Part shown: positions 1,423 to 32,000 of the stretch, one piece after another | Numbering within the stretch: position 1 is the stretch's first letter | Layout of the letters: every line of letters starts with the position of its first letter | Source: Nitrosospira multiformis ATCC 25196 | GTDB lineage: Bacteria > Pseudomonadota > Gammaproteobacteria > Burkholderiales > Nitrosomonadaceae | Reading direction: 5' to 3' | DNA: 32,000 nucleotides | Assembly (NCBI RefSeq): GCF_000196355.1 | Contig: NC_007614.1 | Location: 2,610,001-2,642,000 of the forward strand | The notes under the pieces: model-generated | Seen by the model: only the letters and a program-made list of their open reading frames with translations | What the model was told of the DNA's origin: nothing | Database searches by the model: none | Position numbers and translations under genes: made by a program

Positions 1423-4400
1423 TTACTGCTCGGCGCAAATGCCGTTGCTCATTGACAGACGGTAGCCACCCATGAGCACTTTGGATGCGCCCTCGAGCGG
1501 CAAAGGCTGGGAAAAATAGTAGCCCTGCATTTCGTCGCATCCGTGCCTTATCAGAAACTCCAGTTGCGCCCTTGTTTCGACGCCTTCAGCCACTACTTTC
1601 AACCCGAGGCTGTGCGCGAGCTTGATCATGGCTACGGTAATGGTTGCATCGTCGGGATCCGTCGTGACATCGCGGATGAAAGCACGGTCGATCTTGAGTA
1701 CATCCAGAGGAAAGCGCTTGAGATAGGCAAGACTGGAATAGCCGGTACCAAAATCGTCCATCGATATCTGGACACCGAAGGCTTTCAGATTCTGCAAGGC
1801 GTTGGCGGCCATCTCGGCCTCCTTCATCAATACTGACTCCGTAAGCTCGAATTCCAGCAGACGCGGATCGATGTTCGTAGCCCTCAGCGTTTCCCCGATA
1901 ATGCTATCCAGATCCTGTTGCTGAAACTGCCGGGCTGACAGATTGATGGCGATGGGATGCAACACCAGCCCCTGGCCCTGCCATTCCCTGATCTGCTCAC
2001 AAACCGTTTTCACCACCCACTCGCCTACCGCTACGATCAATCCCGTATCCTCGAGGACGGAAATGAACTGCAGTGGAGGCACCAGTCCATGCGCGGGGTG
2101 CTGCCAGCGCAGGAGCGCCTCGAAACCGGTAATCTCTCCGTTGATCAGGCTTGCTTTGGGTTGGTAGTGAAGCACGAACTCGCGCCGTGCCAGAGCGCCG
2201 CGAAGTTGCGTCTCGATTTTCAGGCGAGCCACCGCGCGCTCATTCATCTGCGGAAGATAAAACTGATAAATCGCCGGTCCCTGCTCTTTTGCCTGGAACA
2301 TCGCTGTATCCGCATTTCTGAGCAGGCTGTCTGCATCGGTACCATCGCCGGGATAGATGCTGATTCCAAGGCTTGCAGAAACATAGATCTCCTGTGTTTC
2401 CAGCTCGAAGGGTACCTGGAGCGCCGAAATAACCTTTTCTGCAATTAAGGTTGCATCTTCAGGCTGTACGAGATCAGACAGAATCAGGGCAAATTCATCC
2501 CCTCCAAGGCGGGCAACCGTGTCGCATGAACGCACACACTGCTGCAGTCTCTTTGCGACATGGATCAGCAGCTCGTCACCGGTAGAATGGCCCATTGTGT
2601 CGTTGACGATCTTGAAGCGGTCCAGATCCGCAAATACCACGCCGACCCGGCGACGATTGCGATGGGCATGTTCCATCGCCTGGCGGAGACGATCAAGAAA
2701 AAGACTTCGATTAGGCAGTTCCGTCAGGGGATCAAACTGGGCCAGGTAGGTGAGGCGCTCCTCCGTTGTCTTGCGGTCAATTGCGGTTGCGAGAATATTC
2801 GCGAGACTCTGAAGAAAATTGATACTGCTGGACGTGAAGCGCTGTGGCTCGGGCGAATAGGCTCCAAGGATCCCATAAGGTCCCCCCGCCCCCGAAATAA
2901 GCACATCTGCGCAACTGCGTATATTATGGCTCTTCAGGATGCTGGAAGGCTTGAAACGGGTTTCCGTCTGGAAGTCCTCCACAATGACGGATTGATGGCT
3001 CGCGAGTACAAAGCGATTTTGACTGTTCTCGTATGTAAACGATATTTGCCTTCCAATCCAGTCTTTCTGCCAGCCGACCCCGGATTTAAGAACAAAAGAA
3101 CGGAAATCCGGCGCAAGCTGGAGCGCCTTGCAGAACTCGACATTGAGACCTTGAGAAGCAATCACCGCTGCCTGGCCCCACAACAGAGCAAGATTTCCGC
3201 TGGCGAGCGCCTGTTGCCCGAATGCGGCAATGAGTCCCTGCTGCATGGCATGCTCCTGGATTGCAAAGTCAGTTTGCTTCCGTTTGGTAATGTCGATAGC
3301 CGTCCCCACTATTCTCAGCTCATCTGGATTGGTGCTCCATTTCAACGCCTTGGCGATATGCAGATGGCGCACCGTCTTGTGTTCGCGCAAAATCCGGAAA
3401 TCGAGTTGAACGCGCCCATTCTCGGCGCTGACCCGTTCCAGATGCATCTCCTGCTGGGGCAAATCGTCCGGATGGGTATAGGATTTCCATATGTCATATG
3501 TGATGCGACTCCCTGGAGCAATCCCGTAGATCTCGTACATCCGGTCATTCCAGATCATTTCATTGGTCGCAGTATTCCACTCCCAGATACCGATGGCGGC
3601 TGCTTCCGTGGCAAGAGCAAGTCGTGTCCTCTCTTCCAGCAAGACGCGCTCCCTTCTGTTCGATTCTGCCCGCAGCCAGACATTTTCTATGACAGTCGGC
3701 AATCGCTGGAGGTAGCCTGCGGTCTTCACCACGTAATCGGCAGCACCCAGTTTCAGCGACTGCCGGGCGATCTCCTCATCCTCGCTCCCGATAAAGAGAA
3801 TGATGGGCAGATCAAGCCCTCGTACCTGGCAAAGCTCCTTCAGAACGTCCGTCGCCGAGGCGCCGGGCAAGCGGTAATCGAGCAGCAACACGTCAACGTC
3901 GGTCTTTCTATCCTGTTCAGCAAGATAGGAAAAAACCTCCTCAGCTGACTGAACAGATTCGATTCGAAGGTGTGGCGCAGTGGAAGCCAGTGCCTGTTTC
4001 ATCGTTTCGGCGTCATGCGGATTAGGCTCGACGTATAAAACCTGGAGTACCGTGGCGCGGCGGTAAGTTTCTGTCTGGAACTTGTCGAGCGTCGCCCGAA
4101 GCACGAGTCCAAGAGTTTCGAGAAAGCGCCCGTGCTTTATGACGTAATCGTCAGCTCCTGCTCGAAGTAACGAGAGGATGGCTTCTTCTCTGCTGGAACC
4201 GGTAAGAACCACGACTGGAAGCGGCAGATGTCGTCTGCGAATCTGAGCCAGCAACGTTTCCCCACTTCCGTCCGGAAGGTTGAGGTCCGTCAGGACGATA
4301 TCGTAGCGAGTAGAGACTGCCGGTTTGGCGATTGGAATACCGAGGCTGGTTCCATAGAGATCCTGGAATCTTTCCACGCGATGCAAAGCTTCCGCCAGCG

Positions 4401-26270: not shown

Positions 26271-26353
26271 TTTTTGCTTTGCGCGGGCACATGGGCAATG
26301 CAGCCGCATCGACGCGTGCTATCTGTCATAGACGTTGCTCGACTTACCCAAGA

Positions 26354-27202
26354 ATGAACGACTTTCAAAGCCTTTCCACAGAGGAATCTCCTGCCCCGGC
26401 AGGGACAAATCCTGCGGTAAATCCCATTGCCCGGATACATGGCGAGCCGGTGACGGAGATCCCATCGGATTTATATATTCCACCGGATGCGCTGGAAGTA
26501 TTTCTCGATACGTTTCAGGGGCCACTGGACCTGCTGCTTTATCTTATTCGCAAGCACAATCTGGATGTACTCGATATAGCGATGGCGGAACTCACGCGTC
26601 AATATTTGGCTTATATCGAAATGATGCGTGCGAATAAACTGGAACTGGCTGCGGAATACCTTTTGATGGCGGCTGTGCTGATCGAAATCAAGTCGCGGAT
26701 GTTACTGCCTAAGCCCGTTGCCAAGGGGAATGAGGATGAGGTCGACCCGCGAGCAGAACTGGTGCGGCGTCTGCTGGAATACGAGCAGATGAAGGTCGCC
26801 GGGCAGAAGCTCAACAAGTTGCCCCAGGCAGAACGCGATTTTGCGCTGACAAACGTATGGATCGAGCAAAAGGTGATTGAACGCCTGCCGGAAGTCAATG
26901 CCGATGATCTTCGCAATGCGTGGCTTATCCTGATGGCGCGCCTGAACGTAAATCGCAGGCACAATATCACGCGGGAAGAACTTTCAGTCCGCGAACATAT
27001 GACCCGTATCCTGCGGCATGTGCAGGGACACCATTTTGTGGAATTCAGCGATTTATTTAATGCCGCTGCCGGAGCAGCGGAGCTTGTGGTGACGTTTCTG
27101 GCGTTATTGGAGCTTGTGAAGGAACGCCAGGTGGAGGTCAGTCAGCCGTCCGCTTTTGGAATGATTTATGTCCGACCGATCAGCGTCCTTACCACCGTCT
27201 AA
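26354..27202 (+). CDS. scpA: Segregation and condensation protein A
   Basis: I trimmed to the ATG at 26354 (MNDFQSL). [32 protein letters not shown] is the canonical ScpA N-terminal region. C-terminal winged helix [13 protein letters not shown]. Confidence 0.88.
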
Positions 27203-27803
27203 TTTCTCCGTTTCATCCCCTGCTCAGGTTAAAAAGGTTCTGGAAGCTGCATTACTTACCAGCCCGGAACCCCTCCCTCTGGCGGAACTGAAAAAACTGT
27301 TCGCGGGTGAACTGGGCTCGGAAATCCTGCGGCGCCTGCTGGACGAGTTGAACAGAGACTGGGAAGGAAGAGGGGTGGAACTCGTGCAGGTCGCAGGCGG
27401 GTGGCGCTTTCAGGCTCGAGCGGAAATGCAGGAATTTCTCGACCGCCTCAATCCGCAAAAGCCACCCCGCTATTCGCGGGCGGTATTGGAAACGCTCGCC
27501 ATCATTGCGTATCGCCAGCCGGCGACGCGCGGGGATATCGAGGAGATACGGGGCGTTGCGGTCGCAAGTTCAGTGCTAAAGGCACTGGAATCAAGAGGCT
27601 GGATATCTGCCGTCGGTCACCGTGAGGTACCGGGTCGACCCATCTTGTATGCTACGACCGTTGAATTTCTTAATGATCTTGGACTTCGCTCCCTGGAAGA
27701 ATTGCCGCCATTGGAAGAACTGGGCTCACTGATTGAACCGAAGGAAAGCGTGGAACAACTGCCTGATCCAGAGAACATGCCCCAACCAGGCAATCCCGAT
27801 TGA
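27168..27803 (+). CDS. scpB: Segregation and condensation protein B
   Basis: 211 aa. [46 protein letters not shown] and [13 protein letters not shown]. Overlaps the scpA end by 35 nt. Confidence 0.88.
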
Positions 27804-28152: not shown

Positions 28153-30261
28153 CTAGTGCACATGCTCGCCTGGTGGGGGCAGGATCTCCTCTTCGCGGTT
28201 GAGCTGCGCTATCTGCTGCATCAGCATGTCGGAGGCGGACCAGCCTGCGCCATCGAGTTCGGGTATCCAGCGCGCCCGCAGGTAGCCGAAGCGGTCCACC
28301 AGGAACTCCATGTGGTCAGGCAGCGTGCCTGCGCCCAGGAGGTCCGGATGGGAGAGCGTGCGCCGGAACAGGGCATAGCTGCGCACGATCTCCTCCGCCC
28401 CTTCGGTCACGATGGGGAAGTGAACGCCCGCCTTGAGCTGGCCCAGCGCGGCAGCACTCAGGTCATGCTCGGGCACTGCCAGAAGCACCGTGTTGCCGGC
28501 CTGCAGCTTTGCATGGAGCGCTTCCAGTTGCGCCAGGCGCTCGCGGGATTGCGGCCAGGAGAATAATACCAGCAGCACGTTCTTCTGGTTGCGGAAGTCC
28601 TTCAGGGTGCCGCTTGAGCCATCCTGCGCCACATACGAGAAATTGGGCGGGCCCATGTTGGGCTGCGGCTGCTCGGGCTTGACAGCGGGACTCATCAGGC
28701 GCGCCTGGTAGCCGCGCGACATGGCGTGCAGGAAGTTCACCACGTCCCAGCGGTCTTCCTCATCGAGCTTGTCGCCAAAGGAGGGCATGCCGGTATCGGG
28801 GATGCCGAAGGAGAGCCAGTGGAAGAAGTCGCCTGCGGTATGGCGGGCCGTGTGCGGTTCGGTCAAGAGGTCCACCGGCGGCTTGGCAAAGCTCTTGGCC
28901 ATCACGCCGTCGCCCTTGCCCTGCAGCCCGTGACAGGCCACGCAGTTCTCGGCAAAGTGGACGGCGCCATTGGAAATGGAGATGGTGTCAAACGGCACCG
29001 GCGTCTTGCGGTAGGTCTCGGGATAGGCATCCACCGTCAAGGGCGGCAGGCCCACGCCCAATCCGATGACCGCCAGGAGGACAGGCAACCCGAAGCGCAG
29101 CTTTTTGTCCCAGTGCTTCCTGCGCCCATAGAAGACTGCGGCTGCGGCCAGAACGAGCAGGGCGATGCCGCCGTAGACGCGCGGCATGATGACAGGCTCC
29201 CCCCAGGTGGCCGCAAGGGAGAAACGGAAGGAATAGGGCCAGTCCTGGATCAGGGCGTGCTTGGCAGGAACCGTGTTGGCCACGATGGTGGCAAGCAGCA
29301 CTATCCCTAAGGCCAGCCCGAATTCCAGGCTCACCCATTTCCTGAGTTTGCGCCCGCCGTTATCCGCTCCTTTTGCGCCTGCGTCCTCGTAGAACAGCGG
29401 CAGCCAGCTCGAGCGCGCGCGCGAGGCGATGATGAGCACCATCATGAGCAGGGCGATCTTGCCATTGAGCAGCCAGCCATATTTGGTGGCAACCAGGCCG
29501 CTGTAGTTGGTATCGACCATGCGGTAGGTGATGAGGATGCCGGTTGCAATCACCGCCAGCATGACGGGCAGCGCCAGGGTGGAGAAGCGCCGCAGGGCCT
29601 GGGCATCATGCCGGAAAGCTTCCTCGCGCGACTGGAATACGGCGTGGATGCGCTGGAGCGCCTGCGTCTGCAGGGCAGGCTGCGTTCCGGCGCTTCCGGC
29701 TTGCGCCTGCTTCAATTCGCTCTGGGGCTTGCAGGCAAAGCAGACCACCAGGAAAGCCGGCAGGGCGCCAAACCAGACGCTGCCCAGGATGATGTGCAGG
29801 GCGTAGGGCAGAAGCGAGACGACCGAGAGGTCCTCGGCTGCGGCGTGGCTGGCAAGCGAGCCGACCCCTAGGGTCAAGGCCGCCACACTTGCGCACAGGA
29901 TGTATTGCCAGCGTGCGGGCGGGGAGAAGCGGATGTAGAGGGCAATGGCAAAGACGACGAGCGCGCAGGCGGCGCGCGCGAGCCAGATATGCCCCATGCG
30001 CGTATTCTCCATGAGGGAGAGCCAGGCGGCCGGATGCCAGGCGTTCTCGTCAATCCCGGTGGCTTGCGCCGTGGTGGTCGCCAGGATGCCGAACAGGCCG
30101 GTGAGCAGGATGAGGGCAAGCCACGGCAGCGCACGCTCCACCCGCGTGACCCAGGGCGAGTGGACGGAGCCGGCAATGGCCAGAAACACGCAGCCCCCCA
30201 CCAGGATCATGTTGGACGCCAGCTGCGCCCAGCGCAGGAGCGTCGCGATGACCTCGATCAT
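28153..30261 (-). CDS. copD: CopD-family copper-resistance membrane protein fused to a class I cytochrome c domain and a Cys-less thioredoxin-fold domain
   Basis: 702 aa. Residues 1-410 form about 10 TM helices of CopD type. Residues ~425-520 carry the heme motif CVACH (28930..28944) and the distal GMPSF Met. Residues ~540-690 show a beta-alpha-beta pattern (NVLLVLFSWPQSRERL, TVLLAVP, EFLVDRFGYLRARW) resembling AhpC/TSA or TlpA folds, but with no cysteine. The start overlaps the copC stop (ATGA at 30258..30261). Confidence 0.8.
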   Translation of the reverse strand: MIEVIATLLRWAQLASNMILVGGCVFLAIAGSVHSPWVTRVERALPWLALILLTGLFGILATTTAQATGIDENAWHPAAWLSLMENTRMGHIWLARAACALVVFAIALYIRFSPPARWQYILCASVAALTLGVGSLASHAAAEDLSVVSLLPYALHIILGSVWFGALPAFLVVCFACKPQSELKQAQAGSAGTQPALQTQALQRIHAVFQSREEAFRHDAQALRRFSTLALPVMLAVIATGILITYRMVDTNYSGLVATKYGWLLNGKIALLMMVLIIASRARSSWLPLFYEDAGAKGADNGGRKLRKWVSLEFGLALGIVLLATIVANTVPAKHALIQDWPYSFRFSLAATWGEPVIMPRVYGGIALLVLAAAAVFYGRRKHWDKKLRFGLPVLLAVIGLGVGLPPLTVDAYPETYRKTPVPFDTISISNGAVHFAENCVACHGLQGKGDGVMAKSFAKPPVDLLTEPHTARHTAGDFFHWLSFGIPDTGMPSFGDKLDEEDRWDVVNFLHAMSRGYQARLMSPAVKPEQPQPNMGPPNFSYVAQDGSSGTLKDFRNQKNVLLVLFSWPQSRERLAQLEALHAKLQAGNTVLLAVPEHDLSAAALGQLKAGVHFPIVTEGAEEIVRSYALFRRTLSHPDLLGAGTLPDHMEFLVDRFGYLRARWIPELDGAGWSASDMLMQQIAQLNREEEILPPPGEHVH

Positions 30262-30683
30262 TTCGCGGCGGCTTTGTTCTTTATCGTGAAGTCGTGGGAC
30301 GAGTCAACCACATGCCCGTCCACCGACAGCACCCGGAACTTGACCGTGTACTTGCCCGGGCTCAATTCCGGCAGGGGCAGAACGATGGCTTTGGGGTCGT
30401 TGGCATCGATATGCGGTTTGGTTTCGGTGACAGGGGTCTTGGAGGCGTCGAGTACGGAGAGTGCGGCATAGTCCTTTTCGACTTCTTCGTTGAAGAACAG
30501 CCGCACCTGGGTGGGGGCCTGGGTCAGTTGCGCGCGGCGCGCAGGTTCTGCCTTGACCAGCATGGCGTGCGCCAGCGCCGGGCTGCTGTGCAGCCCCGCT
30601 ACCAGCAGCAGGAACGACAAAAGGCTGCCTGCCAGTAAGTGAACACTTGCTCTCCTGTCGGCAGATATCATCGATGGTTGCAT
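30258..30683 (-). CDS. copC: CopC copper-binding periplasmic protein (Cu(II)-site-only type)
   Basis: I trimmed to the ATG at 30683, which has AGGAG 6 nt upstream. Signal peptide ends ...SSPALA, so the mature protein starts HAMLVKAEP with an N-terminal His ligand. SVDGH (DxH) lies near the C-terminus. There is no Met-rich Cu(I) loop. PGKYTVKFRVLSVDGH is the classic CopC end. Confidence 0.88.
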   Translation of the reverse strand: MQPSMISADRRASVHLLAGSLLSFLLLVAGLHSSPALAHAMLVKAEPARRAQLTQAPTQVRLFFNEEVEKDYAALSVLDASKTPVTETKPHIDANDPKAIVLPLPELSPGKYTVKFRVLSVDGHVVDSSHDFTIKNKAAAK

Positions 30684-30964
30684 TTTTGCTCCTCTTATAT
30701 GGGCTCTGCACCCGAAGATCGGGCTTCGGGCAGCCACTGTGGTCCTTGTCTTTTTTATTTGTCCCCGGTTGTTCTTGTTCGATCTGCACCCGGTTGACTT
30801 TTTTGTTCCTGCCTTATTGCATCTTGGACTCTTTCCCGCGCTTATGGTTCAGAGGGGGAGCCAGGCCGCGGCCCATGCCCGGGGTGCCCCCTGCACAAAG
30901 GGACTGCGGCGAGCCCAAGCTCAAGTCAACCTGAAGTCAGCGCTTACTCTCTTCCTTCCCTTTG

Positions 30965-31555
30965 CTAGGCGCTTGCACCGGCGGATTTGCGTCCGCGCAG
31001 GAAGAAGACGGCCGCTCCTATGATCACCGCCGCAATGGCGATGATGAGGTAGGGCGACATGCCCTTGGGTTCACCCACGGAGAAGGGGAAGCGCGAGACC
31101 AGCGGTTCCTTGTCGGTGACGGTCACGAGCCCCACGAACTTGCCAGGCTGGGTGAAGTTGTATTCAAAATTGATGGAGCCATTGGGATAGACCTTGGGCG
31201 GTATGTGCAGGATGGTGATTTCATCGAGCTTCTGCTGTTCGTCGGGAGCGGGCTGTCCGCCTGAACCGGTGTCGCGGATGATGCGCACTTCGGTGGGCAG
31301 GGGGCGCAGCGCTTCTTCAATGTAGTCCAGGGCAACTACGGTGCGGCCGGTATTGGGAATGTCTTCGCAGAATTCCTTCTCCTGCGTGGCATCCGGCTGG
31401 TAGCCGGTAAAGTGCATGGTGTAGGGGCCGATGGTGAGCTTGCATATATCATCGGCAAGCGACAGGCCGCCGTGCGCTTCCACCTGGGAGGAGAAGGGCA
31501 GGGCCAGGGCAAATACCAGTCCGATCAAGGCAGGTTTGAGTGAGGATGAGAACAT
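30965..31555 (-). CDS. Secreted, C-terminally membrane-anchored protein; PmoD/AmoD-like architecture (family assignment tentative)
   Basis: I trimmed to the ATG at 31555, giving 196 aa. Signal peptide MFSSSLKPALIGLVFALALPFSSQVEA, so the mature N-terminus is HGG. A beta-rich domain of about 150 aa contains C-x8-M-H (CKLTIGPYTMH) and a second Cys. It ends in a single TM helix (YLIIAIAAVIIGAAVFFL) with a basic tail. It is a paralog of the next gene upstream. Confidence 0.75.
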   Translation of the reverse strand: MFSSSLKPALIGLVFALALPFSSQVEAHGGLSLADDICKLTIGPYTMHFTGYQPDATQEKEFCEDIPNTGRTVVALDYIEEALRPLPTEVRIIRDTGSGGQPAPDEQQKLDEITILHIPPKVYPNGSINFEYNFTQPGKFVGLVTVTDKEPLVSRFPFSVGEPKGMSPYLIIAIAAVIIGAAVFFLRGRKSAGASA

Positions 31556-31704
31556 TATCAATTCGCCTATATAAGTATGGTGAGTCAGTGAATCAGTGAT
31601 CCTGCAGGGTCGCGGTTGCATTTATCCGCCGCTGTTTTGCCAGGCTTGTGTCCGGCGCTCCTCTGCAACGGCAGGAGCCGGTTTATCCGGTGACCTTTCC
31701 TGCA

Positions 31705-32000
31705 TTACGGGTTGCGCGAGGAGCGCCAGCGTTGCACGCGCGGGGATTTCACGAGCTTGTATCCCAGCACGGCAAGCAGCAGCAGGGCGATCAGGGGGCC
31801 TACCGCGGCGCGGAATATTTCGGAATAGTTGATCATCTGTACCCGCAGGGGATACTGGTAGCGCAGGGGCGGCACGCCTTCTGCGGTGATGAATACGGTG
31901 TAGAGTCCCTGCTCGAGGGTGGTCTGGCCCTGGATGACACCATCCGGATGGTGCACAGGACGCAGTTGCGTGACCATCTCGTCCTCTTCGCTCGTGCCCC
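31705..32000 (-). CDS. Paralog of the 30965..31555 product, C-terminal part only (5' end beyond the window)
   Basis: The reading frame stays open to the window edge (GTSEEDE precedes the tracked Met). It aligns with the downstream paralog: HPDGVI/YPNGSI, GLYTVFITA/GKFVGLVTV and PLRYQYPLRV/PLVSRFPFSV. It has the same C-terminal TM helix (AAVGPLIALLLLAVLGY) and basic tail. Confidence 0.7.
   Translation of the reverse strand, partial: GTSEEDEMVTQLRPVHHPDGVIQGQTTLEQGLYTVFITAEGVPPLRYQYPLRVQMINYSEIFRAAVGPLIALLLLAVLGYKLVKSPRVQRWRSSRNP

Follow-up and report, generated by a model that had tools for sequence, protein, structure and literature searches.

The PmoD/AmoD proteins are the accessory proteins most tightly linked to ammonia monooxygenase (AMO) and particulate methane monooxygenase (pMMO), and comprise a signal peptide, a periplasmic domain of the cupredoxin kind in which two cysteines are strictly conserved, and, at the C terminus, a transmembrane helix (Fisher et al. 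2018, PMC6189053). One member, PmoD of Methylocystis, forms a CuA-like centre at its homodimer interface with Cys41, Met49 and His51 as ligands; Cys65 is not a CuA ligand, and in the crystal it is disulfide-bonded to Cys41 (PDB 6CPD; PMC6189053). Here we examine a related protein encoded by the open reading frame (ORF) at 30965-31555, minus strand, of a 32,000-nucleotide stretch of the Nitrosospira multiformis ATCC 25196 genome (NC_007614.1, positions 2,610,001 to 2,642,000; hereafter the window). Taken as a whole, the evidence makes it very probable that this ORF is amoD (orf5), specifying an exported protein of PmoD fold whose N-terminal cluster of His28, Cys38, Met47, His48 and Cys63 would constitute a copper site serving AMO.

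Several properties of the family, all reported by Fisher et al. (PMC6189053), bear on this proposal. The M49A substitution abolishes CuA in PmoD and C65S causes loss of part of the copper, formation of the centre required pre-reduction with dithiothreitol (DTT), and disruption of pmoD gives rise to a copper-dependent growth defect. Classified by motif, Cx7MxHxnC proteins (PmoD of alphaproteobacterial methane-oxidizing bacteria, alpha-MOB, and AmoE of ammonia-oxidizing bacteria, AOB) account for 23.6% of the family, and Cx8MHxnC proteins, annotated as AmoD in AOB, for 13.4%. Representatives of the Cx7MxH, Cx8M, Cx9H and CxnC classes were assayed, the Cx8MH class not being among them; all five homologues bound copper (about 1.9 Cu even for the CxnC-only protein), but only the Cx7MxH proteins formed CuA, the remaining classes giving type-2 Cu(II) electron paramagnetic resonance (EPR) signals. 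Elsewhere it is noted that AmoD of N. europaea keeps only two of the three CuA ligands (Musiani et al. 2020) and, in a 2026 review, that there has been little work so far on AmoD; the names AmoD and AmoE in recent AMO cryo-electron microscopy papers refer to unrelated small subunits.

A phmmer search of PDB sequences with the window protein returned one clear match, PmoD chain 6cpd_A (E 2.4e-24, 39% identity, query residues 36-161 against chain residues 4-128). An AlphaFold2 (AF2) model, computed from a 94-sequence alignment obtained by profile search (predicted local distance difference test score, pLDDT, 82.2; predicted template modelling score 0.76), matched the same chain in Foldseek with template modelling (TM) scores of 0.83/0.90, a root-mean-square deviation of 1.8 Å and E 1e-13, whilst the next matches outside PmoD were generic beta-sandwiches with query TM scores of at most 0.54. 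An earlier AF2 run on 32 close homologues had been poor (pLDDT 66, five models 38-66) and was redone with the 94 sequences. The protein is 99% identical to its copy in Nitrosospira multiformis Nl18 and 59-81% identical to those in other Nitrosospira, Nitrosovibrio and Nitrosomonas genomes. On the grounds of PmoD homology, the Nl18 identity and the gene order amoCABED-copCD, we identify it as AmoD (orf5); compared with AmoD/orf5 of AOB (Nitrosospira, Nitrosovibrio, Nitrosomonas) the gene, operon position, motif and architecture are the same and nothing substantive differs. Homology, cupredoxin-like fold, architecture, the two cysteines and the amo/cop context all place it in the PmoD/AmoD family. 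Neither Pfam nor NCBIfam holds a model of this family, and scans of the ORF against both gave no family, only sub-threshold noise (Catalase-rel, 0.079; LPXTG anchor, 0.11), the LPXTG match being simply the C-terminal helix plus basic tail. UniRef labels some AmoD orthologues as PEP-CTERM protein-sorting domain-containing proteins, and NCBI as hypothetical proteins; we rejected the PEP-CTERM label, with no dedicated test made, as it probably reflects only that same helix and tail.

The translation of the minus-strand ORF reads MFSSSLKPALIGLVFALALPFSSQVEA/HGGLSLADDICKLTIGPYTMHFTGYQPDATQEKEFCEDIP..., a slash here and below marking the predicted signal-peptide cleavage site, and closes with a hydrophobic stretch followed by RGRK. 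An upstream ATG at 31621 was ruled out as the start; because homologues are 191-198 residues long, the start was taken at 31555. The features of the gene, in window coordinates, are as follows.

30965..31555, minus strand: amoD (orf5) coding sequence, 196 residues plus stop (ORF list, phmmer against PDB, AF2 match to 6CPD).
31475..31555, minus strand: predicted Sec-type signal peptide, residues 1-27, with Lys7 in the n-region, h-region ALIGLVFALAL and c-region PFSSQVEA (hydropathy, -3/-1 rule).
31445..31474, minus strand: mature N-terminal arm, His28-Gly-Gly-Leu-Ser-Leu-Ala-Asp-Asp-Ile37, His28 being the predicted residue 1.
31412..31444, minus strand: Cys38-x8-Met47-His48 motif, carried by a beta-hairpin; the PmoD metal motif in its AmoD-subclass version (6CPD alignment).
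31367..31369, minus strand: Cys63 (in EFCEDIP), the second invariant cysteine (C2), kept in 129 of 131 representatives and aligned with PmoD Cys65.
30995..31054, minus strand: C-terminal transmembrane anchor, about residues 168-187, then RGRK (Kyte-Doolittle means up to 3.07).

Signal peptide and transmembrane architecture were called from heuristics (hydropathy and the -3/-1 rule) and from conservation, VEA/H being the sole AXA-type (-3/-1) site after the complete hydrophobic core. AmoD is a Sec-exported, PmoD-type cupredoxin-like beta-sandwich that one C-terminal helix tethers to the inner membrane on its periplasmic side. Codons read by hand, in plus-strand coordinates, place His28 at 31472-31474, Cys38 at 31442-31444, Met47 at 31415-31417, His48 at 31412-31414 and Cys63 at 31367-31369. 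The mature periplasmic domain contains just two cysteines (38 and 63), three histidines (28, 48 and 117) and one methionine (47), of which five fall within its first 36 positions; with only six such residues in the domain, the N-terminal cluster is not a sample from a protein generally rich in them. The AF2 model has strands at mature residues 11-15 and 18-25. Scanning for promoters and terminators around amoD gave nothing above shuffle expectation.

The metal motif itself reads C38-KLTIGPYT-M47-H48 ... C63, that is Cx8MHxnC. In the HMMER alignment to 6CPD, Cys38 lies opposite PmoD Cys41, His48 opposite His51 and Cys63 opposite Cys65, whereas Met47 lies opposite Ile50 and the CuA ligand Met49 falls opposite Thr46, at position C+8. 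AmoD therefore lacks the Cx7MxHxnC pattern of the CuA-forming PmoD/AmoE subclass, its methionine being at C+9, next to the histidine. Set beside the crystallised PmoD (Met49242_1452 of Methylocystis sp. Rockwell), AmoD shares the fold, the two cysteines and hairpin histidine in register, the transmembrane helix and a place in a copper membrane monooxygenase operon beside copCD. It differs in carrying Cx8MH rather than Cx7MxH, the methionine being shifted by one; in having His at +1 in place of a Met-rich N-terminus that starts Glu/Ser-Glu-Gly-Gly; and in having Lys39 and Thr41 at the positions of the crystal-contact ligands Met42 and Met44.

The observation made in a sequence-only reading of the same stretch is confirmed, and its interpretation is supported in part. 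It had called the protein unknown, whereas it is AmoD/orf5, and the AmoD subclass is defined in print by Cx8MHxnC; gene, family and Cys-x8-Met-His motif are all already known. The resemblance to PmoD that it remarked upon proves to be true homology (6CPD, E 2.4e-24, TM 0.83/0.90), and the C-x7-M-x-H motif that it gave for PmoD, with some hesitation, was correct: the 6CPD alignment keeps Cys and His in register and displaces Met by one position (PMC6189053). The codons bear out its C-x8-M-H cluster and 11-residue Cys-to-His span, but not its placing of the cysteine twelve residues after the histidine, since Cys38 lies 10 after His28, with 9 intervening. Its signal peptide ending VEA/HGG, which puts His at the predicted +1 position, agrees both with the uniqueness of the AXA-type site and with a family-wide His at +1, and hydropathy together with Pfam and NCBIfam matches upholds the C-terminal anchor and the CopC and CopD neighbours. 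For the second cysteine (EFCEDIP) it had suggested a disulfide or a ligand: this residue is the family's invariant C2, and the aligned PmoD Cys65 is a disulfide partner in 6CPD and not a CuA ligand.

Conservation of the cluster, examined in two sets, indicates that the arrangement goes beyond chance. Among 121 close homologues (at least 74% identity to AmoD), A27-HGGLSLADD-x-C...TMH...C63 is essentially invariant, with Ser or Ala at arm position 5, whereas the signal peptide varies. The diverse set came from a search of 1.84 billion cluster representatives (50%-identity clusters), from which the best 150 matches, down to about 31% identity, were taken, 131 of them with intact N-termini; counts are from a MAFFT --auto alignment. 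Here the His28 column is His in 114 of 131 (87%) and the Gly29 column is Gly in 123 of 131, against 131/131 for Cys38, 129/131 for Cys63, 97/131 (74%) for His48 and 83/131 (63%) for Met47. Apart from the two cysteines, His28 is thus, on alignment, the best-conserved candidate ligand in the family. The sequence-only reading had proposed such an alignment as a check on its cluster; the residues are invariant among the close homologues, and in the diverse set the two cysteines are the only invariant candidate ligands.

The position of this histidine is kept too. In 127/131 sequences the residue at -1 is Ala, Gly or Ser, and in 108/131 that at -3 is Ala or Val; an alignment-free regular-expression count finds His at +1 of an AXA-type site in 109 of 126 sequences, with an offset from His to the first cysteine of 10 in 102 of these 109, 11 in four and 9 in three. 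Its distance from the cleavage site is thus constant, a pattern to be expected if a free amino terminus matters. It is retained in every motif class of the 131 (Cx8MH 54/57, Cx9H 35/40, Cx8M 21/26, CxnC 4/8), and in the betaproteobacterial and Nitrospirota loci that were fetched A/HG begins 42 of 43 AmoD-type (Cx8MH) and 35 of 35 AmoE-type (Cx7MxH) ORFs. A separate alignment (A2) shows the histidine as invariant, but its members were hand-picked, and the usable figures are the 131- and 126-sequence counts. Co-occurrence of His1 with the hairpin histidine (His2) is weak (odds ratio 4, p 0.014, phylogeny ignored). The exception to A/HG is a second, AmoD-like paralogue of Nitrospirota that begins AQA/QHFHELDKNFC, thus Gln1-His2 (L032 about 9367, L033 about 10634; apparently comammox-type metagenome-assembled genomes); in L033 it stands in tandem after an AmoD copy, and Gln1-His2 would give no free His amine. 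Acidic residues flanking the cysteines are also well kept, namely Asp36 (two before C1) in 104/131, Glu61 (two before C2) in 105/131 and Asp65 (two after C2) in 116/131; they might serve as additional ligands or have a structural part, and Fisher et al. 2018 (PMC6189053) do not take them up in their main text.

The upstream paralogue AmoE (orf4) resembles AmoD in family, in architecture, in its A/HG N-terminus and in having His exactly 10 residues before the first cysteine. Full-length copies in related loci read A/HGKESLEEDSC-x7-M-x-H, so that AmoE differs in its CuA-type Cx7MxH motif and in its arm, HGKESLEEDS as against HGGLSLADDI in AmoD. The CuA-forming alphaproteobacterial PmoDs have the Glu/Ser-Glu-Gly-Gly, Met-rich mature N-terminus; AmoE shares their Cx7MxH motif yet keeps the His.

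Supplementary Data 2 of Fisher et al. (PMC6189053) contains an 'H1' column ahead of 'C1', the authors apparently having tracked an N-terminal His, whilst the main text is silent on the residue. Their primers start the Cx8M and Cx9H constructs at the N-terminal His (CAT GGG CGT..., H-G-R; CAT GAC GGC..., H-D-G; PMC6189053), and since two homologues were thus begun exactly at His, the predicted cleavage site is independently supported. All of the constructs, however, carry a vector-derived Ser-Met ahead of the first residue, which removes the free amine of His1, and the crystallised PmoD model begins at residue 37/38, leaving three to four residues ahead of Cys41 and omitting the arm (PMC6189053). 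With Ser-Met ahead of His1, or no arm at all, a His1 site could not have been seen in this work. The sole proven CuA formers, the operon PmoDs of alpha-MOB, have the N-termini ...LRA/EGGAGPEAMSMGNMC or ...RAS/EGG..., without His, and the O5ODRAFT_02836 primer encodes E-G-G-A-G (PMC6189053). No paper linking PmoD/AmoD to a 'histidine brace' was found in the accessible literature, which omits most subscription-journal papers, and as far as found there the N-terminal His is apparently uninterpreted in print.

From these observations we tentatively favour, as the most likely arrangement although at somewhat less than an even chance, a mononuclear copper site built from His28 and His48. His28, on its flexible nine-residue arm, would contribute both its free amino group and its imidazole; the site would be completed by the hairpin's His48, close to which Met47 and/or Asp36 would lie; and Cys38-Cys63 would be a structural disulfide fixing the hairpin, as in 6CPD. 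The arm, tethered nine residues from Cys38, could reach the hairpin. AmoD would act in copper handling for AMO, by loading or repairing its copper centres or by transfer between CopC/CopD and AMO, rather than in catalysis, a role suggested by the gene context, by the copper-dependent defect of the pmoD mutant and by the finding that all five homologues assayed bind copper. A histidine-brace-like site is plausible from sequence: VEA/H fits the -3/-1 rule, giving His as residue 1 of the mature protein in silico. The candidate for a second brace ligand is His48, conserved in 97/131. Proteins with such braces (CopC, the CuB site of PmoB/AmoB, AA10 lytic polysaccharide monooxygenases (LPMOs), YcnI and methanotroph PCuAC) likewise expose His1 after cleavage, often followed by Gly, and are periplasmic or extracellular beta-sandwiches; the cluster that holds amoD also encodes two of them, CopC and AmoB.

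A number of points weigh against this arrangement. In canonical histidine braces the first strand, which holds His1, is ordered, whereas His28 of AmoD lies on an arm of about nine residues that AF2 does not place: in both runs the first eight mature residues score a pLDDT below 50 (about 41), so that the model offers no pre-formed brace and does not put His28 near His48 or Cys38. Neither Pfam nor NCBIfam matches AmoD to CopC, LPMO_10 or YcnI, and Foldseek matches to AA10 LPMOs (TM 0.42-0.47) and CopC (0.33) were rejected as support, being generic beta-sandwich similarity with TM below 0.5; the analogy with CopC, YcnI and LPMOs drawn in the sequence-only reading therefore extends to His at the predicted +1 position, but not to family or fold. 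About 10% of family members are without His1, among them the sole two proteins shown to form CuA, and copper-binding data for Cx8MH (AmoD-class) proteins were not found in the accessible literature. The disulfide state of the cysteine pair is taken from the 6CPD crystal of PmoD, and the suggested function in AMO biogenesis derives from gene neighbourhood and from a knockout in a methanotroph rather than an ammonia oxidizer.

The cysteines could instead take a more active part. Cys38 (131/131) and Cys63 (129/131) are the sole invariant candidate ligands, a CxnC-only homologue binds about 1.9 Cu and PmoD C65S loses part of its copper, all of which would suit a Sco-like Cys/Cys/His thiolate site in which the reduced pair binds Cu(I), the N-terminal His and Met47-His48 are auxiliary and AmoD is a redox-active copper chaperone. 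We nevertheless consider such a site unlikely, given that the pair is a disulfide in 6CPD, that the type-2 Cu(II) EPR of the non-CuA homologues is atypical of thiolate ligation and that the exact +1 placement of His is left unexplained. Invariant periplasmic cysteine pairs are, moreover, usually structural.

Still less likely, in our estimation, is that AmoD forms a PmoD-like homodimeric, mixed-valent CuA centre, with two bridging Cys38 thiolates, two coppers and two His48 plus Met47, and serves AMO as its partner in electron transfer. In the alignment the PmoD CuA ligands Cys41 and His51 have Cys38 and His48 as their exact counterparts, the fold is shared, and Cx8MH was not among the classes assayed and found negative. 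However, Met47 and His48 are neighbours inside a predicted strand, where adjacent side chains point to opposite faces, and Met47 would on this basis be unable to replace PmoD Met49, a residue whose substitution by Ala abolishes CuA; two of three ligands only are kept in N. europaea AmoD (Musiani et al. 2020). Since the published CuA centres are confined to Cx7MxH proteins (Fisher et al. 2018), a PmoD-like CuA cannot be assumed for AmoD. The need for DTT pre-reduction and the disulfide in the crystal also tell against it, as does the fact that both CuA-forming proteins are without the N-terminal His that AmoD retains.

Most doubtful is the idea that His-Gly-Gly is no metal ligand, being kept for signal-peptidase processing, for folding or for docking to AMO, AmoE or CopC, with copper binding in vitro adventitious: a peptide recognition motif would fit a Gly29 more conserved than His28, a conserved Asp36, an arm that AF2 leaves unplaced and the roughly 10% of members that manage without His, but signal peptidase I does not favour His at +1, AmoB and CopC from the same operon bind copper with just this His1 arrangement, and the family as a whole is linked with copper enzymes and genes for copper.

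The window holds the 3' end of amoE, then amoD, copC and copD, the N-terminus of AmoE and amoCAB lying beyond the window end. The neighbouring genes are as follows.

31705..32000, minus strand: 3' part of amoE (orf4), the paralogue upstream of amoD, truncated where the window stops; last 97 codons, matching the C-terminus of the 207-residue AmoE of the Nl18 locus (L001).
30258..30737, minus strand: copC, downstream (Pfam CopC, E 1.6e-22; NCBIfam copper_CopC, E 1.5e-22), with N-terminal His at ALA/HAML and an SVDGH motif.
28153..30261, minus strand: copD fused to cytochrome c and redoxin-like domains, 702 residues (Pfam CopD, 7e-21; Cytochrom_C, 5e-16; AhpC-TSA, 6e-5).

The Nl18 locus, near-identical to the window, shows amoA, amoB and the 207-residue amoE upstream of amoD, and the full order amoC-amoA-amoB-amoE-amoD-copC-copD is visible in Nitrosovibrio Nv4 (locus L005). 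In the CopD fusion, which recurs in Nv4 (L005 11143-13263), the cytochrome c domain carries CVACH; the redoxin-like AhpC/TSA domain (the last 170 or so residues) has FSWPQS at the usual active-site position and, being without any cysteine, looks redox-inactive. After copD, Nv4 encodes a 220-residue exported protein whose C-terminal tail is rich in His (…HSGHSHHMHQDD…HSGHNNHHMHH; L005 13260-13922, plus strand), which has no counterpart in the window; there, convergent plus-strand ORFs at 26279-27803, scpA/scpB-like as judged by eye only, come after copD instead.

Across this operon His directly follows the predicted signal peptide in four consecutive exported proteins, AmoB (AAA/HGERS), AmoE (VSA/HGKES), AmoD (VEA/HGGLS) and CopC (ALA/HAMLV), as read from the window at 30258-30737 and from L001 at 1118-2491, 2639-3262 and 3347-4003. 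In AmoB and CopC this residue is the known copper ligand.

AMO and pMMO are central to the nitrogen and methane cycles. Our analysis brings nothing new on the gene or on the Cx8MH motif; the point that it sharpens is that His1 is the best-conserved candidate ligand after the cysteine pair. The N-terminal His is real and strongly conserved, and a brace-type site is a reasonable hypothesis rather than a result. The published biochemistry that we found (Fisher et al. 2018) relied on N-terminally extended or truncated constructs, and a native N-terminus could change the picture. It is possible, though we hold this with slightly less conviction than the arrangement favoured for AmoD itself, that the ancestral, family-wide site of PmoD, AmoD and AmoE is mononuclear, using the amine and imidazole of His1, with an HGG-x6-D-x-C arm closing over the Cys1/His2 hairpin, and is not the CuA seen in vitro. 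Were this so, CuA would be peculiar to those alphaproteobacterial PmoDs in which His1 has been replaced, or to the constructs used, and AmoB, AmoE, AmoD and CopC would each begin with a copper-binding His1, which would suggest a relay of such N-terminal sites feeding AMO.

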